In this document: piece by piece, positions 2,807 through 47,041 of the stretch
How the letters are laid out: every line of letters begins with the position of its first letter
Position numbering within the stretch: the stretch's first letter is position 1
Virus record (IMG/VR): IMGVR_UViG_3300031993_000007
DNA length: 64,000 bases
Direction: 5' to 3' (one strand)
From: a virus
Taxonomy: Duplodnaviria; Caudoviricetes
Notes under the pieces: generated by a model
Seen by the model: only the letters and a program-made list of their open reading frames with translations
Database searches by the model: none
Told to the model about the DNA's origin: nothing
Translations under genes and position numbers: made by a program

Positions 2807-4054
2807 CTATTTTATGGAGAATTTCTTTGTTCTTTTGCTGTTTGAAATCTCACGGTCAAAGCGGTCAATTCCTTCTGTTTCACTTCCGAACAAGCTCGTC
2901 CAAAGCTTTGTAAGCATGATGGACGGAGACCAGTTTTCACTAGGTAGTTTGCTCAGATAGTCACGCTGGATCTTCATCGCCTTAAGTTTACCTTGGATCT
3001 CTTTCTTAGTAGCAGGATTCTTCTGCTCCTTCAAAAGATCTTCGTAATACAAGATAAGACTGTCAATTCGGGAGAGGGCCGCACCAGTGTTTGTAGTGCC
3101 ACACTTTCCAGAAGCATAAGTATAGCCGAGCAAAGAAGCACAAGTAAAGTCTGCATAGAGACGCATGAAGTTACCTGCACCTTCCTTACCAATGGCCATC
3201 ATCTTCTTTTCTTTCTGAAGACCAGTAGTTAGATCCGGGCCAAGACCATAGCTAGCCGCAAAAGCGTCTGCGAACTTGTCAACTTCGTCAAAGTTGATAC
3301 CGAAACACTTGTCAATGATGGCATCAAGAAGCTTGAACGGAAGAACGATAAGGCTGATAATGCCCAAGAAAGGCATAGCCAGAGCCGTGATACCAATGTT
3401 TATGGCGCTTGCAACGGTGTGAATAGCACCGATGATACCACTCTTGTGGCCTTGAGTTCCACGGACTTTAAGACTGGGAGCATAGTCTAGAGCCACTGCA
3501 CTGGACACCATAATCTTCTCAAGGATGCTATCGCTCTGACCAAAGGTAGCCACCATGTTGATAGCATTACGGATACCTTCTTCAGCCTTTCGACCAGTTC
3601 CCCAAGCAAAGAAGCTATAGCCAATCTCACGAACGATCAAGGCCGCAGCTTCTCTAGGACTCAAGCGATCGCCATCCAAGAAGTTAGGGGCGTATACAGA
3701 CAAGTTGCAGTTTGCCAGAGGATGCTTGAAGCGATAGGTCTTAGTAGCTTGTTCAAAGTCTTCGTTGTCAAAGTACTTTGTATCCATCTTGCCGATCGTG
3801 AACCGACCAACAGAAGTCGTAGATCCAAACCACCAAGTAGTCTTGTTTACATGAATGGAAAGGTGTTTGAAATTAAACAGCTTTTCCATGTACTCAGCCA
3901 TTTCTTCAAGAGCTTTGGCAGCTGCTCGTTCATCTTTTTTCCAAAGATGCTGAGCCTTAGCAATGAGCTTGATAACCGGGGTGATGGCTTCTTCACCCTG
4001 ATAAGCTTCGTTTGCTACTGTAAATAACGGAGTAGAAAGATCAGTTTCAGTCAT
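2807..4054 (-). CDS. Probable virion protein with degenerate zincin/M48-like motif
   Basis: EAAALIVREIGY where HEIGH is expected, plus the downstream D.FAD.FAA.YG.G.DL..GL motif. Start moved to MTETDL, which overlaps the endolysin stop. Confidence 0.5.
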   Translation of the reverse strand: MTETDLSTPLFTVANEAYQGEEAITPVIKLIAKAQHLWKKDERAAAKALEEMAEYMEKLFNFKHLSIHVNKTTWWFGSTTSVGRFTIGKMDTKYFDNEDFEQATKTYRFKHPLANCNLSVYAPNFLDGDRLSPREAAALIVREIGYSFFAWGTGRKAEEGIRNAINMVATFGQSDSILEKIMVSSAVALDYAPSLKVRGTQGHKSGIIGAIHTVASAINIGITALAMPFLGIISLIVLPFKLLDAIIDKCFGINFDEVDKFADAFAASYGLGPDLTTGLQKEKKMMAIGKEGAGNFMRLYADFTCASLLGYTYASGKCGTTNTGAALSRIDSLILYYEDLLKEQKNPATKKEIQGKLKAMKIQRDYLSKLPSENWSPSIMLTKLWTSLFGSETEGIDRFDREISNSKRTKKFSIK

Positions 4055-4595
4055 TGTATGCCTTAAAGGTTTTGCCATTGTCAAGAGAGATCAAGTAGGG
4101 ATTTCTGCTGATGGTCTTAGCTACCCTCGGAGTGAAGATAGCATCAGCATTATTAGAAACGTGGATCCAAGGATTACCCTTAGCGCTGACTTCGTAGATG
4201 ACCTGACCGAAGTTAGTTTCTCCGGCTTTATTCATAGCTACGATCAGCTTAAAGACTTCCATTGTAGAGAGCTTGCAGTTGGTAATGTTGATATCAACAG
4301 CCCCCAGAGTAGGCTTCGGAGCGGTTATAGCCCAACCACAGAAATGGTCAGAGGTCGAAGACGGATTATATCCATTAGCCTTGAGGCGGTCGTAATCATC
4401 TTTATCACGAACTCCGCTAGAAATGGTAATGGATATATTTTTGGTCTTAACCTTCTTTATATCCATAGAGTTCAGACGGTCACGAACTATCTGAAGGTTC
4501 TCAGCAAGGATCTTTAGCAGAGCCAGCTGATAGTCATTCAAGTTTTTTCCGAATTCATCCGAAGAAAAATTGGGAGAGAGTTTAACAGAAGCCAT
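4047..4595 (-). CDS. Peptidase M15A-family cell-wall hydrolase (putative endolysin)
   Basis: LSPNFS..EF, ISSGVR, SxH (SDHFCG), AVDI and WIHVS Zn-ligand motifs. Confidence 0.8.
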   Translation of the reverse strand: MASVKLSPNFSSDEFGKNLNDYQLALLKILAENLQIVRDRLNSMDIKKVKTKNISITISSGVRDKDDYDRLKANGYNPSSTSDHFCGWAITAPKPTLGAVDINITNCKLSTMEVFKLIVAMNKAGETNFGQVIYEVSAKGNPWIHVSNNADAIFTPRVAKTISRNPYLISLDNGKTFKAYND

Positions 4596-4604
4596 AAAGT
4601 CTCC

Positions 4605-4631
4605 AAAAAATAAATGGGGACAAGCCCCATT
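4605..4631 (-). terminator. Intrinsic terminator ending the Ubl operon
   Basis: aatgggg-acaag-ccccatt hairpin followed by a U-tract on the minus strand. Confidence 0.6.
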
Positions 4632-4634
4632 ATT

Positions 4635-4949
4635 TCAGTCATCTTCGTCGATGCTTTCGTCGAAGACTTCAGAGTTTTGTGGGATTTCTGAAGGCAAGCC
4701 AGGAAGATCCATAGCGTCTTCGTAGTCCCAGTTAAGATTATTTAGTTCACGACAAAGTCGCTTCGGAAGGGAATCGCGCAGATTTGCGCCAATAGTGTAC
4801 AATCCATAGAATGAGAAGAAGGATTCTTTGATAAAATCCTCCGGATCCATTTCAAGTACCTTATGACAAAGTCTGTCCGCATGAGTAACCCTGATGGAGA
4901 GAATAAAATCTCTGTTATCCAAAAAAGTTTTCCAGACTTTTTGCTTCAT
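4635..4949 (-). CDS. Hypothetical protein (last gene of the Ubl operon)
   Basis: 104-aa ORF, TAATG overlap with the upstream gene. Confidence 0.7.
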   Translation of the reverse strand: MKQKVWKTFLDNRDFILSIRVTHADRLCHKVLEMDPEDFIKESFFSFYGLYTIGANLRDSLPKRLCRELNNLNWDYEDAMDLPGLPSEIPQNSEVFDESIDEDD

Positions 4950-5791
4950 TACCCTTCCTCCGCCGCATTATGGAGTTCTTTATACTTAATCAGTTCTTCC
5001 TTCAAGATAGCGAAAAGCAATCCAGCACTCGAACTAACTTGTTTTTCTTCGTCTGTGGTTAATTTCCCGTCATCCTTAAAGATGAAACCTTCAATCAACC
5101 CAATCAGACGATCATCTCGATTTCCATAGTCTTCAAGGCATTCTTTCCAGACAGGCCTTGCCTTCTCTAGATCCGCAAGATTGAACATTGGGAGCATAGA
5201 GAAGAATCCAATATCTGTAAGAACAGCAAAGAGCTTAGCCAACGGACAATGCAATTCAACACCTTGTCTTAGCCAGTAGCCGATAATGCCAATGGCTGCG
5301 GACAAGGTGCTTTTTGCATTCCAAACTTCCGGATTGTTGTCTTCCTCTACTATTTCTTCCTCTCCGACTATACTGTCAGATCTGGAACTTTCTAGAGACA
5401 GACGTTTGCTAGCATTGACGCACAATCCTGAAGGCCCTTCATACAAAGCTCCAATCAGGAATGCGTCTGCGCCATTAGAGAAGCAATCTAACCAGTCGGC
5501 ATACGGATCGCCATCTTCGTCTTGCATTATGCGTACTAAGGAACTCTCAACAAGCTCTGTAATGGTTTGGAGCCAATCCATTCCCACCAAAGGTCTTGGT
5601 GTTTCAGGAACAACTCCTTTAACAAGCATCAGATCTTTACGAATCGGTAGTTGATACTTCTCGTATGGAGTCTCTCCGTCTACAAATGGAACAATGTGGA
5701 TATCTTCCCTTTCGCAGAGCAGCAGAGCTGGGCTTCCAGTGGATATTTCATATCCCATTGAAAACCATGCAATATCATTTTGTTCTTCCAT
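4949..5791 (-). CDS. Hypothetical acidic protein (Ubl operon)
   Basis: ORF 4949-5833; GGAG RBS precedes ATG at 5791 (MEEQND); overlaps the JAB stop. Confidence 0.7.
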   Translation of the reverse strand: MEEQNDIAWFSMGYEISTGSPALLLCEREDIHIVPFVDGETPYEKYQLPIRKDLMLVKGVVPETPRPLVGMDWLQTITELVESSLVRIMQDEDGDPYADWLDCFSNGADAFLIGALYEGPSGLCVNASKRLSLESSRSDSIVGEEEIVEEDNNPEVWNAKSTLSAAIGIIGYWLRQGVELHCPLAKLFAVLTDIGFFSMLPMFNLADLEKARPVWKECLEDYGNRDDRLIGLIEGFIFKDDGKLTTDEEKQVSSSAGLLFAILKEELIKYKELHNAAEEG

Positions 5792-6566
5792 TGGCTCCTC
5801 CGCTGTAAGTGATCCACTTCTGGGTTTCGCCAATTTCGCTCATCTCTTCTGGAGTATATCCATATTTCACAAATTTCTTTTCAAGCTCTTCTGGGGTCAT
5901 GTCAGGTTCAGTGCTAAGAATTTCTGCCTTCAAGGCTTCATATTCTTCAAGAACACGAATCTTTCTAGGTACCAAAGGCCTGAACCCACGATACGGGTGG
6001 GGATCCACCAACCCATGATTGCCGTGAAGATCCACGCCATGATGACGGTGAAGATCCAAAGGATAATCTTTTTCAAAGTCAGGATTGTCTACGAGACTGA
6101 TTGTTCCATCAGTAACGACTACGTTGCATTCCAGAGTCGTATATTCACCGACTGCTTCCATGCGGTTCATGATGCACATAGGCACACGGAAGCCCTTCAG
6201 ATAGATGAAAGAGATCTGAAAGAATCGGTTAATGTAATCAAAGTCTGTCTGTGAGAACTGTCCGAACGATCCGGGATGACGATGAACCACAGTATTAAAG
6301 CATCGTTCTCCCCACTTATTTTCATACATATCATCCGGCACTTCTAGCATACGAATACTTCCGGGGCTAACACGCTGCGGCGGAATTTCAAAGACATCAG
6401 GGTCGATAGCAGCTTCCCAACGGATCGGATCGATGTCGGCAGACAAGTACATACCATATTCATCGCCTTTTGCTACTTCTCCCATAAGCTCTAGACGAGC
6501 CAAGACCTTAGCAGGGATTCTTACTGTCCCTCTGCTGCGAAAGTTGGCGTTAACGCTTATTTCCAT
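5775..6566 (-). CDS. JAB/JAMM (MPN+) metallopeptidase, putative Ubl-processing/deconjugating enzyme
   Basis: Exact JAMM signature: E (GDEYGMYL) ... H-R-H-x7-S-x2-D (HRHPGSFGQFSQTD). Confidence 0.88.
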   Translation of the reverse strand: MEISVNANFRSRGTVRIPAKVLARLELMGEVAKGDEYGMYLSADIDPIRWEAAIDPDVFEIPPQRVSPGSIRMLEVPDDMYENKWGERCFNTVVHRHPGSFGQFSQTDFDYINRFFQISFIYLKGFRVPMCIMNRMEAVGEYTTLECNVVVTDGTISLVDNPDFEKDYPLDLHRHHGVDLHGNHGLVDPHPYRGFRPLVPRKIRVLEEYEALKAEILSTEPDMTPEELEKKFVKYGYTPEEMSEIGETQKWITYSGGANGRTK

Positions 6567-6583
6567 ATTTTCTCTACCTCTAT

Positions 6584-6612
6584 AAAAAAGACGGCTACCT
6601 TACGGTAGCCGC
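6584..6612 (-). terminator. Intrinsic terminator between the Ubl and JAB genes
   Basis: cggctacc-ttac-ggtagccg 8-bp stem followed by U6 on the minus strand. Confidence 0.75.
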
Positions 6613-6626
6613 TGATGATGATTTGG

Positions 6627-7139
6627 TCAGTTCTTTGCACCACTGATGTTCGGGCGAACCACGATGGTATCACCGTCCTTCACAGAAGCCGGATTGATCG
6701 AGGAGCCATCGGGGCCTTCAATCACCGTCTTGTCGAAGCTTTGTTCAGCAGCAAATTCCTTGATGATGTCACTCAACTGGGCAGCTGACGTAAATACAAC
6801 TTCCTTAGAGTTGACAACCTCGCCACGCTTGTTGCGAAATTGCACAGTGGCTTTCTTGCCAGCGGCGGCGGCTTTCTTTTCTTCAGCGGCTTCAGCAGAG
6901 ATCCTGGTCGTAGAAGCGACCTTAACTTCCTTCTTAGCTGCCGGAGCTTCAGCTCCTTCGAGAGCCACACCACGAGCAGAGAGCTTGTCTTCACGGGTAC
7001 AAGTCAAATACTTCTTGAGAGTGCGGCTCTTTGTTTTAGCCGTACGGATGTCGCTGATTCCACAGCGCTTCATAACTTCGCTCAAAGTGGAGCTTTTCTT
7101 GTTCCACTCGTCCACGAACTTTTGGTTTTCGGGCGTCAT
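6627..7139 (-). CDS. Ubiquitin-like (beta-grasp, ThiS/MoaD-type) protein with N-terminal extension
   Basis: C-terminus VKDGDTIVVRPNISGAKN matches the MoaD/ThiS pattern LKDGD.V...P.VSGG; lies between the E1/E2 and JAB genes. Confidence 0.75.
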   Translation of the reverse strand: MTPENQKFVDEWNKKSSTLSEVMKRCGISDIRTAKTKSRTLKKYLTCTREDKLSARGVALEGAEAPAAKKEVKVASTTRISAEAAEEKKAAAAGKKATVQFRNKRGEVVNSKEVVFTSAAQLSDIIKEFAAEQSFDKTVIEGPDGSSINPASVKDGDTIVVRPNISGAKN

Positions 7140-7153
7140 GATGATCTACCTCT

Positions 7154-8146
7154 TTATTTAAAGAAACCTTGACAGACCTTCTCAAGGTAGGAAAGGGATT
7201 CCGTATTTTCGTAAATCCCCATTTGAACAAGCAGACTGGTCTCTATCTGCCACATGCCGGATTCAACTTCCGACTTCATGAGTATCTGATCGTCTGGCTT
7301 CATTTGATTATTCTTCTGGTCTGGCATCAGAATAGTCGTGAATTTTCCACCTTCATTATCAGAATAACCCAATTGGTAATATAAAACCGAAACACTCGGG
7401 AACGGGACATCGTTCTTTTTCATGACATCAAATGCTATTTGACGGAATTTATCAAGGACTTGATTAATTCCGAAGTAGACTTGAGCCATTGAAAAGAATC
7501 TGTTTCCTTCCAGTTTTTGGCATAGCATGTACCTAGCTACATCCACGTTAGGCATCCCCTGCAACTTTCTGTAGGTTTCAGGAGCGTACGACGTCCATAT
7601 AGCTTTGGTAATTCTTTCCATAGAACTGTTCCATTCATGGTTCTTCTCAAGATTTTCCTCAAGAATCTGTCGATAAGCCCATACTGCGTAGGGCCAGAAG
7701 GTACAGAACAGATGGTTACAGTTTCTAGCTTTCCTGTGTACTTCGGGATGGCGCAACAAGAGCTGGAAGAATTCGTATCCAACATCAGCGATGAATTCCG
7801 GCACCAGACAGTTACGTCGCCACTCTGTAACGAAATCATTGTCGGATTTACACCATCCTGCATTCATGATACTGGTTCCGCCAAAGTTCCAAGTCAAATG
7901 CGAACCCATTCCGATGATCCAATTGAATTTTTCATTTATCAGAGAGTCTACAACCTCTTCTTCATTTCCGGGGCTGAGATACTCTTGAATTTCTTCCATG
8001 CGCTCTTCGTTTATTCGAGAGATAACGGGTCTGGCTCCATAGAGAACCTTCTTCATCTCTCGAATGCTTTCAAAAGTAACCATAAAGTTTCTTTCAATTT
8101 CTCGGCTAGGAACATTTTGAGCTGGATAGTAGGGCAAATTTACCAT
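7154..8146 (-). CDS. Hypothetical protein between E1 and Ubl
   Basis: 330-aa ORF overlapping the E1 stop; no family recognised. Confidence 0.75.
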   Translation of the reverse strand: MVNLPYYPAQNVPSREIERNFMVTFESIREMKKVLYGARPVISRINEERMEEIQEYLSPGNEEEVVDSLINEKFNWIIGMGSHLTWNFGGTSIMNAGWCKSDNDFVTEWRRNCLVPEFIADVGYEFFQLLLRHPEVHRKARNCNHLFCTFWPYAVWAYRQILEENLEKNHEWNSSMERITKAIWTSYAPETYRKLQGMPNVDVARYMLCQKLEGNRFFSMAQVYFGINQVLDKFRQIAFDVMKKNDVPFPSVSVLYYQLGYSDNEGGKFTTILMPDQKNNQMKPDDQILMKSEVESGMWQIETSLLVQMGIYENTESLSYLEKVCQGFFK

Positions 8147-8865
8147 GTTGCTTCTCCATCTTTAAAGATGTCGTTCAAGCTGAAAAAGTACTTGATGTTC
8201 TTCTCCATAGCTCGTCCGATCGTTGCGAACCATGCGTATGGAATGGCGTAAATCAGCCTGTAAGCATACCACACAAGCATCGTAGGCGGAGCCATAAAAC
8301 TCGGTGTTACGCTATAGGTTCTTTCGGCCACAGTTCCAGTTAGCATCACGTCTTCCTTGCCATAGTCCGGATTGAATTCGATACAGCAAGCATCGCCACC
8401 ATCGTAGGTAAGCTTGATATCAATTTCGGGGAATATAGCTTTAGGATCTGAAGTGTCTCGGGCATCCACAACTACGATACCATTTCTGTAAGCAAAAGTT
8501 GCCCACAGCTCTTGGTTATCACGGAGTTCGGGATATCCAAAGGCTTCAGCCATACACTCTAGGAAGTCTTCCGTAGTATAGACACGCTTCTTGATACCTG
8601 CTAAGATTTCCTTAGAAATGGTAGCCTTATCACGGCCTACGTAACACAACGGCAAGGGAATTCTGTTGAAGTTCGACAGTTCCATCTTGTCGTCATCAAT
8701 AGCTACCAATACTCTGAAATCGTTCATTTTTGCAAAGCCGTAAAGGAAGTTTCCTCCAATACCGCCAGCACCAATAACAATAAGATTTCTGCCGAATGTC
8801 GGAGGGCCTTTAAATTCCTCTCTTAATTCCTCTTTCTTTACATCTTCCGAGCTCATTATAACCAT
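8140..8865 (-). CDS. E1-like ThiF/MoeB adenylyltransferase
   Basis: VIGAGGIG Rossmann loop, IDDDKMELSNFNR (D.D.VE.SNL.R), VVVDARD. The ATG at 8856 (TAATG-coupled to E2) may be the true start. Confidence 0.92.
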   Translation of the reverse strand: MVIMSSEDVKKEELREEFKGPPTFGRNLIVIGAGGIGGNFLYGFAKMNDFRVLVAIDDDKMELSNFNRIPLPLCYVGRDKATISKEILAGIKKRVYTTEDFLECMAEAFGYPELRDNQELWATFAYRNGIVVVDARDTSDPKAIFPEIDIKLTYDGGDACCIEFNPDYGKEDVMLTGTVAERTYSVTPSFMAPPTMLVWYAYRLIYAIPYAWFATIGRAMEKNIKYFFSLNDIFKDGEATW

Positions 8866-9584
8866 TCCTCCACGGTTGAATGTCTTGCCATAATTGCTGT
8901 GTAATCATTGTGGACACCCTTGATGGTATTTTCAATAGTCTTGCAATCGGCGATAATGGATCTTTTTGTAGCCAGATCTACGATTGTTGGTTTGAAGTAT
9001 GACGAGTACAGTGCTTCGTTCTTTAGCATGTTTGCTAAAGATCTAACACTAAGCTCGGTCATATGTTCATGACCAGAAAATCCGCCCATACAGATGGCTC
9101 CACCTGATCCTACATTCGGATGATGAGCCTTAACGTAGCTGCTTCCGGATTTCTTAGCAAAGGCTGAGCAACCAATGGGGAATGTTTCGTTATCGTTACC
9201 AAACAGCTTGAAGACAAACAGTCCGATGGCTGGCTCGTAGTTTACACTATGATTTTCATCGTTCTTGCCCCAAGACCATTCCTTGTCTTTGGTGGCTAGA
9301 TTCATCTTCAAGTACTTCTTCGAGTGTTCGTAATACTGAAGGTTACAAGGCTCAATAGGTTCCTTTAGATATACTTCAAGAGCCGGATATCCTTCGTAAG
9401 TCGCAATTTTTACGGATTCGATCAGATCACTGTCCTTTGCCATCCTGTTTCCAATCTTGGCAATGTCTTCAGCAATCTTAAATCCACTAGTAGCAGATTT
9501 CGGCGAGCTAAAGAAGTTTATTATTCCAGACGAGGATTTCAGTTCAAGAAATCCTCGTTCATCAACTTTTCCAATTCCGTACAT
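8856..9584 (-). CDS. E2-like (UBC-fold) conjugating enzyme
   Basis: HHPNVGSGGAICMG matches the UBC HPN(I/V)xxxGxIC motif with catalytic Cys; directly upstream of E1. Confidence 0.78.
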   Translation of the reverse strand: MYGIGKVDERGFLELKSSSGIINFFSSPKSATSGFKIAEDIAKIGNRMAKDSDLIESVKIATYEGYPALEVYLKEPIEPCNLQYYEHSKKYLKMNLATKDKEWSWGKNDENHSVNYEPAIGLFVFKLFGNDNETFPIGCSAFAKKSGSSYVKAHHPNVGSGGAICMGGFSGHEHMTELSVRSLANMLKNEALYSSYFKPTIVDLATKRSIIADCKTIENTIKGVHNDYTAIMARHSTVEEWL

Positions 9585-9592
9585 AAGGTCTC

Positions 9593-10738
9593 CTATACAG
9601 GTATTGCTTCTACGTCACCGACCGGTTCCGCATCGTTAACTGGTTCTGCTGCTTCGACTGGTTCTCCGTCGGCATCTTCTGGCATACTGGTTGCTAACTC
9701 AGGATGAGCCATACGAGTTTCACGAGAATTAAGATCAGAATACTCCTGTGCACTCCATTCTGAAGAAGCCTCTGTCCAAGAAGATCCTGGGAGGAAATTT
9801 ATATCATCTTCTCTGTCTATCGTATGAATACGATGCTCTCCAGACAGAAGAGTATTGTTCCTATACCATTGACCATATTCGGACATATCGGCGATCAGCT
9901 TTTGGAAATAGGGCCAATCAAGTCCTTCAAGCTCTTTGGTCTTGAAACCTTGAAGAGCAAATTTCTTAAAGATCCCAGCAAGAAGTGATCCGTCAATCTT
10001 CATAGTATCAGAGGACAGCGGAATAGCCTTAAAGCATTCTGCTAATTCATTGCTACACAGCATGAACACGGCCTGAGTTATCACTCGGCTATCAAGAGCA
10101 AACGAAGGATCATCAAGGCTTGTCTTGCACTTAAAGCTCTTGAATTTTTCGTAAGACCCATGATCCCAAGAAATGATTTCCTTAGAGAACATCAGTCTCC
10201 CTCTGTCAGACGTAATGGTGCCGCCCTTGCAATAGAACGTATTAAGCACGATAGTCCTTGGAGAAAGGAATAATCTTAGCAGATCATCTTCTAAGTCAAT
10301 CTCCCTTGGACTACTAAAATTTGGGCCTTCAATAATTACTGCTGACTCAAATGATCCGTATCCACTAGGGCATTCATCTGGATTTGTTGCAATCTTTATG
10401 GTAGCATTCGGTCTCATAGAATCCCTGAAGCCGTTCAGGTTCTTTCCTAATGAAACGAGAGCTAGATGATCATTTGAATGGTCTATAGGCAACGATGCTG
10501 GAATTACAAAAATTTCTTCTATTCCGGCGACCATCAGTTCTCCAGCCAAAGTAACTACCAGAATACTGATATCTTTGATTACATCTTCAATCGAGTTACG
10601 GTTTTGGTATAACCTCCGGAATTCGCTAGATGACTGAATGTCTATTACAATAGCACAATTTTTCGGAATTGTGATTCCGGTACATTTCTTAGTGCGGTCG
10701 TACAATTCCGCAAGGTTGCTGACTCGTTCTTCGCTCAT
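9593..10738 (-). CDS. Hypothetical protein (first gene of the Ubl operon)
   Basis: ORF 9593-10762; AAAGGA RBS before ATG 10738 (MSEERV); acidic low-complexity tail. Confidence 0.75.
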   Translation of the reverse strand: MSEERVSNLAELYDRTKKCTGITIPKNCAIVIDIQSSSEFRRLYQNRNSIEDVIKDISILVVTLAGELMVAGIEEIFVIPASLPIDHSNDHLALVSLGKNLNGFRDSMRPNATIKIATNPDECPSGYGSFESAVIIEGPNFSSPREIDLEDDLLRLFLSPRTIVLNTFYCKGGTITSDRGRLMFSKEIISWDHGSYEKFKSFKCKTSLDDPSFALDSRVITQAVFMLCSNELAECFKAIPLSSDTMKIDGSLLAGIFKKFALQGFKTKELEGLDWPYFQKLIADMSEYGQWYRNNTLLSGEHRIHTIDREDDINFLPGSSWTEASSEWSAQEYSDLNSRETRMAHPELATSMPEDADGEPVEAAEPVNDAEPVGDVEAIPV

Positions 10739-10804
10739 AATTTTCCTTTGGGTTAAAGTCAAAATTTTATATATCCATAAAATTTTAGTCTAAAGGCCAT
10801 AGGC

Positions 10805-33259: not shown

Positions 33260-34834
33260 ATGGAACAAACCGAAAACACAGAAGAAATCAATGTCATGAT
33301 GGAAGCCAAACCGGTGTTCGTGAAGATGAATCTTCATGAAATCAGCGGCCTTGGTGACCAATCTATCGATACAATGTCCTTCGGAAAGAAGCGTATCTAT
33401 TCCGGAGTCTCTGGATCGATGGTTAATGACTGGAGTGATCTGGTTCTTGGGTATTATGAAACTTTCAACGTCAAGGATGAAAACGGTAACGATGTTATCG
33501 ACCCGAAGACGGGAAAGCCTAAGACATACCAAAAGCTGATTATTCCTGGATTTGGAATTGATGCCTTGCTAGATTTGGCCAGCTTCAGATTGAAGAGCCA
33601 GTCCCAAGAAATCAAGAATCTGGAAGATCTCATATCCGAGATTGATTTTGTATTGAAAAGAAGCTTTGAATTCAGCTATCGTGTGTCGGATAGCGCTTAC
33701 AAGATCAATATCGTGTACAATACGGACAATGAAGAATTGTGCTTTAAGCGTGAGCACGTTATAGCCATTCTGGCTTGTTCAAAGGTGTTTAGAATCAGTC
33801 TGCCGCTGCTCCTCAGCTTTATGGTAGACAATCCGGAATTTCCTGAAGATATCAACACGGTCATTTTGGAATACTTCCTTCATGCAATGGAGGAGATTCA
33901 GAAGTTCATCGGCAGACCTGTGAATCTTCACAATAAACTCCGTCGTTTGGTTGAAAGTCGTGTCTATGGAACAGAATACTCTGACACAGTGATCTGGGGT
34001 TATCTCCGTAACCTTGGAACCAACTCTGTTGAAGTTGTGCAGCCGTTGCTTCGCAAGCTTATCACGGATATCACTCCGAAGCTGACGATCAATGAGAATG
34101 TGATTAACTTGTATCACGTCGTTGTAAAGAAGCAGCTTCACTTCATGTTCCATGCTAATATTCCGCTTGAATATGAAAATGTAAACTCTGCCCTTGAGCC
34201 GGATGAAGCCAGTGTGTTTGATACCACTGTAGCCAAGTTCGCTCAGAATGAAATCTATCCGCCGCTGGTGGATCTTGCTTATAAGGACTTTGTTCGTAAG
34301 CTCCTGAAGGGTGTGGCCTCCGGAATTGAGGTTACAGATGATGAAGTCGAAGAGTACACCAAGGTCTTTATACCCAGCAAAGAAAAGAACTACATCTTCT
34401 TTGCTCTATACAGCAAGTATATCGAGGATCATGAAATCCTTTTCGCTCTCAATGAACGTCGCTACACTTATCTGACGTTACTGCTTCACAGGATCCTCTT
34501 GAAGTACAATATGCCTAATCTGGCTAAGATCATCATGAGCAATACGGATGATGAAAACACTGCAAAACTCAGCACGTCCAAGCTCAAGTTGACTAGGAAG
34601 TTTATGCAGAGTATTCGTGAGAGTCATGGGTATCAGGAACTCCAGAAGAATTGTTTCAAGTATATTTCGGAGAAATTCCAGCACAATAATACCCTGCTTG
34701 GCATTCTGGAAAATATTGCCAAGAACTCTAGACACTCTGTCTTCCCGAATGCCATTGGCGAGTACGAACAAATTACCATTGATGACGAGTCTTTGGCTAG
34801 CGAACTTCTTCAGTTGGCTAAGATCATTGTATGA
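33260..34834 (+). CDS. Putative non-virion RNAP promoter-specificity (sigma-like) subunit, AR9 gp226/phiKZ gp68-like
   Basis: 524-aa helical protein two genes from the chaperonin (as recalled for AR9 g226/g228), next to primase, with an early promoter. Synteny-based call. Confidence 0.45.
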   Translation: MEQTENTEEINVMMEAKPVFVKMNLHEISGLGDQSIDTMSFGKKRIYSGVSGSMVNDWSDLVLGYYETFNVKDENGNDVIDPKTGKPKTYQKLIIPGFGIDALLDLASFRLKSQSQEIKNLEDLISEIDFVLKRSFEFSYRVSDSAYKINIVYNTDNEELCFKREHVIAILACSKVFRISLPLLLSFMVDNPEFPEDINTVILEYFLHAMEEIQKFIGRPVNLHNKLRRLVESRVYGTEYSDTVIWGYLRNLGTNSVEVVQPLLRKLITDITPKLTINENVINLYHVVVKKQLHFMFHANIPLEYENVNSALEPDEASVFDTTVAKFAQNEIYPPLVDLAYKDFVRKLLKGVASGIEVTDDEVEEYTKVFIPSKEKNYIFFALYSKYIEDHEILFALNERRYTYLTLLLHRILLKYNMPNLAKIIMSNTDDENTAKLSTSKLKLTRKFMQSIRESHGYQELQKNCFKYISEKFQHNNTLLGILENIAKNSRHSVFPNAIGEYEQITIDDESLASELLQLAKIIV

Positions 34835-35880
34835 TAAAGGATGCTGGCCAATATCTAGACGATCTCATAATGTCGGTGTATACTGGGGCCACCAGCATCG
34901 ACTATAATCGGACTCAGCGAATCATCAGATGCTTTGATTGCGGTGACTCTGACAAACAGGATCACGCTCATCTTGGCATTTCTCTGGTTCCTCCGTTTCT
35001 GTATCACTGCCATAGGTGCGGATTCGGAGGAGCCGTAAATGAAGAATTCTTGTCTAGACTCGGAATAAAAATAGACAAGAAGCTTCATGATATTCTGGCA
35101 GAGAACCGCAAGATCGTCATGACGGCGGCAAAGACTAAACAGCGCTCTGGATCTACTCTTGTTAATAGGATCTTGAATGGAGCGTTTGCAAGTCGAAAAC
35201 TTCATCTTCCAAACTACACTGACGCCGATCGACAACGACCTAATTTCAGGTATCTTTGCGATCGATTTGGTGTAGAATGGACTCTAGAGGATGCGAAAGC
35301 TTTTAAATTAATTCCGTCCTTGAAGAGGTTTGGAAGGGCTAACTTCCTCCAAGAGTGGCCTGAAAAACCAGAGGTTTTAGATGTCCTTCATACAGACTAT
35401 GCTGGATTTCTGGACTACGCCGGACAAGAAATTATCTTTCGAAGGATCGTTGAAAGTGAAAGCTCAAGATACTACGAGATAAAATTCTCTAAGGCTCCGT
35501 TCAGATTATACACTATCAGCAGGCAAGTTCCAGTAGCTACATCAAGGCTTCAGCTCATTTTGGCCGAAGGAATTTTTGATGTGATAGGTCTGTATAACAA
35601 GTTTCCTGAATTCCGTAATAATGCTGTCTTTGCAGCGATGCTAGGAAAGTATCCGGATAGCATTATGGACTTCTTCTTTAGACTTGGATTCTTTGCTCAA
35701 GACGTTATGATCTTTAAAGATAATGACGTGAATGACTGGAAATACATCAATGGAATAAAGAGATTGAATTATCCAAAAAAGCTTGGATTTACTGTCAAGG
35801 TTCTGCACAACGAAACAGGGCATGACTTTGGAATTCCGGCTAATGAGATCCGTCTGGATTCTGCTAGACGAATTTTATAA
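34831..35880 (+). CDS. DNA primase (Zn-finger + TOPRIM)
   Basis: RCFDCGDS..H..YHCHRCG; LAEGIFD; FKDND. Confidence 0.8.
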   Translation: MIKDAGQYLDDLIMSVYTGATSIDYNRTQRIIRCFDCGDSDKQDHAHLGISLVPPFLYHCHRCGFGGAVNEEFLSRLGIKIDKKLHDILAENRKIVMTAAKTKQRSGSTLVNRILNGAFASRKLHLPNYTDADRQRPNFRYLCDRFGVEWTLEDAKAFKLIPSLKRFGRANFLQEWPEKPEVLDVLHTDYAGFLDYAGQEIIFRRIVESESSRYYEIKFSKAPFRLYTISRQVPVATSRLQLILAEGIFDVIGLYNKFPEFRNNAVFAAMLGKYPDSIMDFFFRLGFFAQDVMIFKDNDVNDWKYINGIKRLNYPKKLGFTVKVLHNETGHDFGIPANEIRLDSARRIL

Positions 35881-38662: not shown

Positions 38663-38733
38663 AATTTCCTCGAAATATTTTCATAAAATAATATAATGAG
38701 AAGCCCGAAGGCTTCCCACATAGGTAATAAAGA

Positions 38734-46968: not shown

Positions 46969-47028
46969 TTTAACTCCTTTCTTGCTGCTGTGAAATCCTT
47001 GGTAGATCTAAGGCAGATCTACCAAGTT

Positions 47029-47036
47029 GTAATATA
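47029..47036 (-). promoter_or_regulatory. Putative early promoter TATATTAC for RNAP beta-C
   Basis: Exact motif in the intergenic gap. Confidence 0.55.
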
Positions 47037-47041
47037 AGATT

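Follow-up and report, generated by a model that had tools for sequence, protein, structure and literature searches.

A predicted ubiquitin-like conjugation gene cluster in the genome of an uncultured jumbo phage

Introduction

In bacteria, ubiquitin-like conjugation is at present regarded as a form of host immunity to phages, as in the Bil system, in type II CBASS (anti-phage signalling based on cyclic oligonucleotides) and probably in Bub. Bil (BilABCD) is a bacterial ISG15-like anti-phage system and corresponds to operon type 6d of Iyer et al. 2006 (PMC1779556). The E1 of Bub (6E/DUF6527 operons) has no Cys in its crossover loop; the sole invariant residue of that loop, a Tyr, forms an oxyester intermediate (Ye et al. 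2024, PMC11601596). Phages carry components of related type in lambda-type tail assembly, where TAPI has a ubiquitin-like domain and TAPK a JAB domain (PMC1779556). The subject here is a cluster of eight genes at positions 4635-10738 of a 64,000-nucleotide stretch of viral DNA, referred to as the window, from IMG/VR virus record IMGVR_UViG_3300031993_000007 (Duplodnaviria; Caudoviricetes). The cluster is predicted to contain a complete gene kit for ubiquitin-like tagging, namely a UBC-type E2, a minimal ThiF-family E1, a ubiquitin-like protein (Ubl, the tag) and a JAB peptidase.

A full-text search, which covered few subscription journals and in which absence is not proof, found no paper on a phage-encoded complete set. 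Broad jumbo-phage reviews make no mention of ubiquitin-like conjugation (PMC7824862, PMC13282480), and the Bil papers and the 2006 survey (PMC1779556) make none of phage-encoded complete sets. An earlier reading of the same DNA from its letters alone (the sequence-only reading) had known of no characterised example in a lytic phage. The papers searched agree as far as complete phage sets are concerned, whereas the lytic lifestyle is something that we infer from kinship with AR9-like phages alone.

The phage genome and its conjugation gene cluster

The virus record is 259,448 bp long, has direct terminal repeats and is estimated to be complete; the window is the reverse strand of its bases 49,680-113,679. 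Encoded in the window are split multisubunit RNA polymerase subunits, GroEL, a DnaB-type helicase, an SbcC-like protein and virion proteins. The label 'jumbo phage', used in the sequence-only reading, is correct, because it agrees with both the length of the record and the presence of the split RNA polymerase, GroEL, DnaB and SbcC genes. The beta-prime-like subunit of the RNA polymerase shares about 35% identity with its counterparts in Bacillus phages AR9 and PBS1; Yersinia phage phiR1-37 and Staphylococcus jumbo phages come next in order, and this kinship identifies the phage as an uncultured distant relative of the AR9 group. Among public sequencing runs, the DNA was traced to bovine gut metagenomes.

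Eight open reading frames (ORFs) on the minus strand fill positions 4635-10738, overlapping or separated by very short gaps, and the pairs E2/E1, E1/ORF-B, JAB/ORF-C and ORF-C/ORF-D overlap by 1-17 nt. All eight co-oriented genes that had been described from the letters were confirmed, and every motif that had been quoted was located: HPNVGSGGAIC, GAGGIG, DDDKMELSNFNR, KDGDTIVVRPNISG and E36...H95-R-H97-x7-S105-xx-D108.

The same eight genes occur in the same order in three further loci, L002 (a 55-kb JGI contig), L003 and L004 (both Logan contigs), which together with the window make up the full loci of a group termed clade I; L005 and L006 are fragments. Proteins of the three loci are 28-85% identical to those of the window, with ranges of 30-39% for ORF-A, 45-69% for E2, 71-84% for E1, 51-74% for ORF-B, 75-85% for Ubl, 56-74% for JAB, 28-48% for ORF-C and 59-83% for ORF-D. 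The core genes flanking the cluster in L002 are 75-91% identical to their counterparts in the window, apart from one at 39%. The conserved synteny and the identity of the flanks indicate that the cluster is inherited with the genome at a fixed place. Co-occurrence of the genes in related genomes had been set beforehand as a test that could refute the prediction, and it was found in L002, L003 and L004. Since these loci keep the eight-gene order and no homologue departs from the catalytic motifs, a complete gene kit of this predicted kind in a phage genome is more than chance.

Judging by these identities, several members of the cluster evolve faster than their neighbourhood. ORF-A, ORF-C and E2, at 34-50% identity, change much faster than the flanking core genes. 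This arms-race-like pattern would suit an exclusion system, in which the same chemistry tags the structural proteins of co-infecting or superinfecting phages and spoils their assembly. Bil, the sole characterised system with separate Ubl, E2, E1 and JAB, spoils assembly in this way (10.1101/2023.09.04.556158; PMC11601596). Exclusion is nevertheless an improbable function for the cluster, which in every relative occupies one set position among core genes and not a variable island. Moreover, PADLOC defence models give weak matches that are limited to the nucleotide-binding loop of E1, and this E1 does not have the IAD-AAD-CYS build of its Bil counterpart.

The E2-like protein

The E2-like gene (8856-9584, minus strand) encodes 242 amino acids with the motif H155-P-N-V-x3-G-x-I-C165 and matches to the UBC fold. 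Residues H155, P156, N157, G162, I164 and C165 are invariant across six homologues, and the HPN signature with a Cys eight residues after the Asn is kept in the E2s of six clade I proteins and three from a more distant group, clade II, described below. The active-site stretch HHPNVGSGGAIC aligns without gaps with HPNVGANGEIC of human UBE2S; the pattern HPNVGxxGxIC is identical to the letter and the Cys residues are aligned. This alignment places Cys165 on Cys95 of UBE2S, which we take to be the catalytic residue of that enzyme.

An AlphaFold2 model of the protein has a predicted local distance difference test (pLDDT) of 69 and a predicted template modelling score (pTM) of 0.68. When this model was searched with VIA, which is independent of Foldseek, the top matches were UBC E2s and UEV/RWD domains, with Z values of 5.0-5.9 over residues 28-221. 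They include 3bzh (Z 5.9; root-mean-square deviation (rmsd) 4.5, 129 residues aligned), 2h2y (5.7) and UbcH5c (5.7), and the Bil E2 8tyz_C is matched at 4.8; all of these values are below 8, a range that the tool calls common. In the feature space of the ESM Atlas, 66 of the 100 clusters nearest to the protein carry Prok-E2_D, and the clusters listed are mostly viral, which provides a lead only. No Pfam family other than Prok-E2_D (PF14460) was matched by two or more of the six homologues, and its matches all fall below the gathering cut-off: the window protein scores 12.6 bits against a required 25 (E 0.11), and the best homologue has an E of 0.019.

A profile built from the E2 alignment, searched exhaustively against 1.84 billion representatives, recovered its own family alone (2 representative clusters) and gave nothing significant against PDB sequences. 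Significant overall sequence similarity to eukaryotic E2s was likewise not found. The HPN-x7-Cys match to UBE2S, the UBC top folds at Z 5-6 and the sub-threshold Prok-E2_D matches make it likely that the 242-amino-acid protein is a UBC-type E2, as the sequence-only reading had proposed, and this assignment is less firm than the others that it made.

The minimal E1

The E1 gene (8140-8865, minus strand; 241 amino acids) encodes a minimal ThiF-family adenylating enzyme, recognised by PF00899 and by invariant adenylation residues. Its score exceeds the gathering cut-off of the Pfam ThiF family PF00899 (31 bits versus 28.1), which supports the ThiF/E1 identity given to it earlier, and the homologue in L004 reaches 40.4 bits. 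A profile of three E1 homologues has its best PDB matches in UBA3 and UBA2, the catalytic subunits of the NEDD8 and SUMO E1s (E 3e-4). Alignment shows that G32, G34, G35 and G37 (GAGGIGG), D57 and D59, N65 and R68, K80, and D134 and D137 are invariant in both phage clades and in Escherichia coli MoeB. Given these invariant ATP-binding and adenylation residues, the adenylation site looks intact.

In canonical thioester-forming E1s the crossover loop provides a catalytic Cys, either as part of the loop or in an insertion, and this E1 has no such conserved residue; its Cys104, Cys160 and Cys161 are conserved within clade I alone. Invariant in both phage groups is Tyr184, which lies in the motif (T/G)Y(S/A)VTPSF (TYSVTPSF in the window) just before the FMAPP helix. 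Manual anchoring of FMAPP on GVMAP of MoeB places Tyr184 at most one residue from MoeB Cys187, a placement that a MAFFT alignment did not reproduce. By analogy with Bub, Tyr184 is put forward as a candidate E1 nucleophile that could form an oxyester intermediate. A complex prediction for E1 with Ubl residues 93-167 returned a score of 0.00, which is no verdict and speaks neither for nor against binding. The E1 of L002 (L002:5702-6664) has an acidic, Ala/Glu-rich N-terminal extension of about 80 residues that does not occur in the window, L003 or L004.

The tag and the JAB peptidase

The Ubl gene (6627-7139, minus strand) encodes 170 amino acids, comprising a helix-turn-helix (HTH)-like N-terminal domain, a linker and a beta-grasp domain, with the end ...RPNISGA-KN. 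In the model, the helical HTH-like domain spans residues 3-55 and is followed by a disordered Lys/Ala/Glu linker and by the C-terminal beta-grasp (95-166), which has the order beta-beta-alpha-beta-beta and a pLDDT of about 80. Foldseek matches the beta-grasp to SUMO2 (E 2.9e-4, probability 1.00, TM by target 0.53) and further to SUMO1, ISG15, NEDD8 and the Caldiarchaeum ubiquitin. With VIA, Smt3 is matched at Z 7.8 (rmsd 2.8, 71 residues aligned) and the Bil Ubl 8tyz_B at 6.7. The beta-grasp Ubl recognised from the letters is thus seen in the model search as a SUMO/ubiquitin-like fold. Profile matches of the family are weak and involve ThiS (L002 Ubl, E 0.017) and SAMP2, and a profile of the Ubl alignment gave nothing significant against PDB sequences. 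At 75-85% identity, the Ubl is better conserved than any other protein of the cluster, a parallel to ubiquitin among eukaryotes. Its N-terminal HTH-like domain is a probable nucleic-acid-binding module.

At the C-terminus of the Ubl, S166-G167-A168 is invariant and is followed by a variable tail (KN, C or V). A cut of this pro-form by the JAB may follow Ala168 rather than Gly167, considering that Ala168 is invariant before the variable tail and that the clade II tags end in KAA with no tail.

The JAB/MPN+ (JAMM) gene (5775-6566, minus strand) encodes 263 amino acids with E36, H95, H97, S105 and D108. These JAMM residues have exact spacing and are invariant in four clade I proteins, and the equivalent residues are invariant in three clade II JABs, whose Prok-JAB scores of 19.6-24.6 bits lie below the required 25. 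An ESM Atlas model of the protein matches Prok-JAB, JAB and CSN5 clusters, mostly viral, at TM 0.40-0.59; a profile of the JAB alignment gave nothing significant against PDB sequences. The intact JAMM peptidase of the sequence-only reading is supported by the full motif, together with relatives that are linked to it by profile and score slightly short of the Prok-JAB cut-off. The C-terminal helical region of the protein ends in a conserved W-x4-GGANG (GG-RG in L004), followed by a variable tail of two or three residues (protein C-terminus, 5775-5810). This end is reminiscent of another conserved Gly motif with a tail that can be discarded, and the clade II JABs do not have the motif.

ThiF-family enzymes and beta-grasp proteins have an ancestral role in sulfur transfer, the L002 Ubl weakly matches ThiS, and the E1 has no conserved Cys. 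These observations would suit a system with no conjugation at all, in which E1 and Ubl carry an acyl-adenylate or sulfur in the manner of ThiS/MoaD, for instance to modify nucleotides, tRNA or DNA bases in a phage related to uracil-DNA phages, and the E2-like protein is a non-catalytic scaffold. On the evidence, this reading is very improbable. Pfam and NCBIfam searches of the cluster turned up no gene for a rhodanese, a cysteine desulfurase, ThiG, MoaE or the like, and the earlier argument that an E2 and a JAB with no thiS/thiG/moaE-type genes speak against cofactor sulfur transfer is supported. Purifying selection has preserved the full HPN-x7-Cys signature of the E2 in two phage groups that are distant from each other, and in fold the Ubl comes closest to SUMO, ISG15 and ubiquitin, not to ThiS or MoaD. 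The pro-form tail and the JAB, for their part, fit a conjugation cycle.

Relatives in a second phage group

A search with the JAB-alignment profile revealed weaker relatives on contigs of 18-149 kb (clade II, L007-L010), which carry gyrase, topoisomerase IV, SbcCD and unsplit RNA polymerase genes. The gene order in this group is tag-like, E2, E1 and JAB. The tag-like proteins (197-258 amino acids) have one or two domains that weakly match winged helices, a basic linker and a C-terminal domain ending in RHNKAA. The E2s are much longer (640-670 amino acids), with a central HPNVSGGxVCMG, while the ThiF/E1 proteins have 242-263 amino acids.

Comparison of the two clades with hhalign links their E1s (98.3% probability, E 1.5e-14, 186 columns) and their JABs (98.5% probability, E 2e-15), and links the E2s over the active-site stretch only (73%, E 3e-5). 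The same method detected no relationship between the clade I Ubl and the clade II tag-like domain, so that their equivalence is by position and architecture only. The profile links of E1 and JAB place the module in at least two distant lineages of large phages, and, with the mostly viral ESM Atlas clusters also taken into account, the cluster in the window seems to be one of several phage-borne versions of conjugation chemistry. The idea that ORF-A and ORF-B are fused parts of the clade II E2 was dropped, as hhalign found no relationship between them and the extra regions of the 640-670-amino-acid proteins.

Further relatives were sought among 50,697 GenBank phage records, where neither megablast with the cluster nor tblastn with E2 and E1 found anything, and in IMG/VR, where scans with the E1 protein and the E1 alignment gave no confirmed relative.

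Several other features were observed on the clade II contigs. Two contigs have a second short gene (L009:16196-16723 and L010:8829-9365; 175-178 amino acids) with a weak ThiF match, located about 6 kb downstream of E1-JAB and beyond SbcCD. A topoisomerase IV/gyrase A-like gene in L007 (L007:1128-3692) contains intein and LAGLIDADG domains, and the gyrase B gene of L009 is split around an inserted DUF7487 gene.

Transcription signals

The most enriched 7-mer upstream of genes in the phage genome is TATATTA, present in 26 of 135 upstream regions against 1.7 expected and usually followed by N5-TG. In AR9, early promoters, which are used by the virion RNA polymerase, have the form AAATATATATTAT-N6-G (PMC5312081). 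The TATATTA-N5-TG motif resembles this sequence and may function as a promoter; it occurs, among other places, upstream of a 524-amino-acid RNA-polymerase-family gene (33260-34834). A second motif enriched upstream of genes across the genome, AAC[AT]-N6-TG, is like the AR9 late promoter. Examples of upstream motifs in the window lie at 46969-47040, 38663-38700 and 34835-34870. Fifteen of the 35 exact early-type motifs fall inside rough ORF calls, and some of these may be internal promoters.

Two early-type sites are found in the cluster. The first, P1 (TATATAA-N5-TG; 10760-10773, minus strand), is a promoter-like sequence 21 nt upstream of the ORF-A ATG with one mismatch to the motif, and the variant is also present upstream of ORF-A in L002 (position 3852). 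The second, P2 (7370-7383, minus strand), is an exact TATATTA-N5-TG within ORF-B. It precedes the Ubl ATG by about 230 nt and is kept at the same place in the window, L002, L003 and L004. P2 is written in the codons of a conserved Leu-Tyr-Tyr-x-Leu, in which the four loci share the Tyr codon TAT and the Leu codon TTG; the background for ORF-B is identical codons at 29 of 118 (25%) invariant degenerate residues.

An intrinsic terminator, a strong hairpin with a U-run (6591-6612, minus strand; -17.4 kcal/mol, z -6.6), separates the Ubl gene from the JAB gene. It stands 15 nt past the Ubl stop codon and recurs after the Ubl gene in L002, L003 and L004 with different stem sequences. A terminator-like hairpin with a U-run (4613-4631, minus strand) follows ORF-D, at the end of the second unit and at the same place in L002 and L003; it is weak taken alone (z -1.95). 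This hairpin and another after a downstream 425-amino-acid gene are weaker than the one after Ubl and stand at conserved places. On these signals, the cluster is two transcription units, divided 3' of the Ubl gene. The sequence-only reading had spoken of an operon; its gene set stands, but a single simple operon does not, given the conserved terminator. P2 and this terminator together predict a short, abundant tag-only transcript, with less read-through into JAB, ORF-C and ORF-D. The tag would then be made in excess over the enzymes, which suits a stoichiometric tag and catalytic enzymes.

The promoter motifs suggest that the cluster is probably expressed early, from promoters of the virion-RNA-polymerase type. 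This timing bears on a possible part in virion or particle maturation, with Ubl and JAB acting as a lambda-type TAPI/TAPK pair or with the Ubl being ligated to the phage's own structural proteins. Pairs of Ubl and JAB are known from phage tail assembly clusters (PMC1779556), and large virion-type genes lie at most 10 kb from the cluster. Even so, maturation is very unlikely to be the role of the cluster: its promoter motifs are early-type, no late-type AAC[AT]-N6-TG was found in its intergenic regions, lambda-type systems have neither E1 nor E2, and structural-protein families (Pfam, PHROGs) matched none of the eight genes.

The accompanying genes

Four further conserved genes complete the cluster, all on the minus strand. 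ORF-A (9593-10738; 381 amino acids), of no known family, has an acidic C-terminal tail and starts at an ATG at 10738 with an AGGAAA ribosome-binding site. ORF-B (7154-8146; 330 amino acids), also of no known family, begins within the end of the E1 gene; eight relatives were found, all within its own phage group. ORF-C (4949-5791; 280 amino acids) and ORF-D (4635-4949; 104 amino acids) belong to no known family either, the latter being well conserved and having an acidic tail. Pfam, NCBIfam, PHROGs and PADLOC gave no family for any of the four, even at E values up to 10, and ORF-A, ORF-B and ORF-C had no detectable relatives beyond the group. In ORF-B (7705-7740, residues 137-148), H137-x5-C143-N-H145-L-F-C148 is invariant, as are C99 and C325. 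This His/Cys cluster may bind a metal or provide a catalytic Cys/His pair.

Downstream of the cluster on the minus strand are genes for proteins of 182 (4047-4595) and 425 amino acids (2807-4084), which adjoin it in L002 and L003 as well, at 80-91% identity. With a strong hairpin (2778-2800) at its end, this pair makes up a third unit. The 182-amino-acid protein weakly matches DUF5715, and the 425-amino-acid protein matches phrog_2767, of unknown function.

A predicted phage conjugation pathway

Gene content, motifs, folds, synteny and regulatory motifs are established for this locus, and from them we infer every chemical step, the timing and the targets of what is probably, with considerable room for doubt, a working, virus-owned ubiquitin-like conjugation pathway. 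In the predicted sequence of events, the JAB would trim the short variable tail of the Ubl after Gly167 or, more probably, after Ala168, and the minimal E1 would adenylate the new C-terminus with ATP. The Ubl would then pass to Cys165 of E2, either directly or through an intermediate on E1, for which Tyr184 is the candidate by analogy with the E1 of Bub. E2 would join the Ubl to lysines of target proteins, with the fast-evolving ORF-A and ORF-C, and ORF-B and ORF-D, as candidate specificity factors or substrates, and the JAB might also reverse the mark. Because the tag bears an N-terminal HTH-like domain, the targets of conjugation would acquire a probable nucleic-acid-binding module. Early timing would point to host takeover or counter-defence rather than to virion assembly.

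A number of observations weigh against such a pathway. Fold support for the E2 is modest (pLDDT 69, best Z 5.9): a Foldseek search of its model against PDB and BFVD and an ESM Atlas shape search gave nothing significant, and none of the curated E2 family models in Pfam and NCBIfam was passed. No Cys common to the E1s of clades I and II was found in the alignments, and the JAB of the window matches no Pfam model, PF14464 and PF01398 included. The last residue of the Ubl is not Gly, and the tag-like proteins of clade II, ending in RHNKAA, have no Gly there at all. Neither an E3 nor a conjugation target could be identified. As for expression, P1 deviates from the consensus at one position, and one such deviation inactivated a predicted early promoter in AR9 (PMC5312081); no RNA run was listed among the public sequencing runs checked for cluster DNA.

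A bolder and more detailed version, which is possible though rather doubtful as a whole, is an early phage ubiquitination with hybrid chemistry. Here a Cys-less E1 would use a Tyr184 oxyester, or hand its adenylate directly to an HPN-Cys E2; a DNA-binding, HTH-SUMO-like tag would be placed on host or phage proteins; and ORF-A to ORF-D would constitute a new specificity apparatus.

If the predicted conjugation pathway is real, the same chemistry would be used on the viral side of the conflict too, as it is in eukaryotic viruses. A Cys-less E1 working with a canonical Cys E2 would provide a test case for the evolution of E1-to-E2 hand-off, between the oxyester of Bub and the thioester of eukaryotes. 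The E2 active-site stretch, identical to the letter to that of a human E2, bears on the origin of the eukaryotic UBC signature. The system is small (E1 241, E2 242, Ubl 170 and JAB 263 amino acids) and could be reconstituted directly.

Comparison with known systems

Relative to the systems described so far, what appears to be new is the two-unit layout, the internal early-type motif for a predicted tag-only transcript, the HTH-like domain of the tag, and an E1 with a shared Tyr rather than a Cys. Bil shares with the window separate genes for Ubl, E2, JAB and E1 and has no E3; some Bil Ubls also carry a short tail after the conserved C-terminal residue, in the presence of a JAB, and the Bil E2 and Ubl structures (8tyz C and B) are among the fold matches of the window proteins (Z 4.8 and 6.7). 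In contrast to Bil, the window cluster is located in a phage genome at a fixed core position and has four extra conserved genes. Its E1 is a single adenylation domain of 241 amino acids, whereas that of Bil is IAD-AAD-CYS (PMC11601596), and its E2 keeps the classical eukaryotic His of HPN, which the 6d E2s do not have (PMC1779556). Its Ubl has one beta-grasp and an HTH-like domain and ends in SGA plus a tail, not in Gly. Membership of Bil was rejected, there being no IAD-AAD-CYS E1 and no PADLOC or NCBIfam Bil model that was passed.

The likeness to Bub lies in the E1, which in both is minimal and ThiF-like, with no crossover-loop Cys and with an invariant Tyr as candidate nucleophile (PMC11601596). 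Bub Ubls also have varied N-terminal domains, and the type I Bub Ubl is processed by a JAB (PMC11601596). The Bub E2 uses Ser-His with no Cys, while the window E2 has HPN...Cys, and the window genes are not fused. Membership of Bub was rejected on this E2 motif and on the lack of a DUF6527 match in any of the eight proteins.

Eukaryotic likeness is seen in the E2 active site (UBE2S), in the nucleotide-binding half of E1, which is best matched by UBA3 and UBA2, and in the SUMO2/Smt3 fold of the Ubl. The E2 differs from eukaryotic UBC proteins in its 242 amino acids with insertions and an N-terminal extension, and the E1 from those of NEDD8 and SUMO in having no Cys domain, ubiquitin-fold domain or second subunit.

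Type II CBASS resembles the window in the E1/E2 chemistry of Cap2 and in a JAB, Cap3, that trims or reverses. The C-terminus that is conjugated in CBASS is not known to be restricted to Gly. Unlike type II CBASS, the window has a dedicated Ubl, no CD-NTase and no E1-E2 fusion, and Cap2/Cap3 membership was rejected, as the PADLOC E1-E2 models match the E1 nucleotide-binding loop alone. PRTRC membership was also rejected, with no NCBIfam model of PRTRC proteins A-F among the matches of the eight proteins at E up to 0.1. Judged by its genes, the cluster appears to be a member of no named system and would work like Bil or eukaryotic ubiquitin-like conjugation, with a minimal E1 of the Bub kind.

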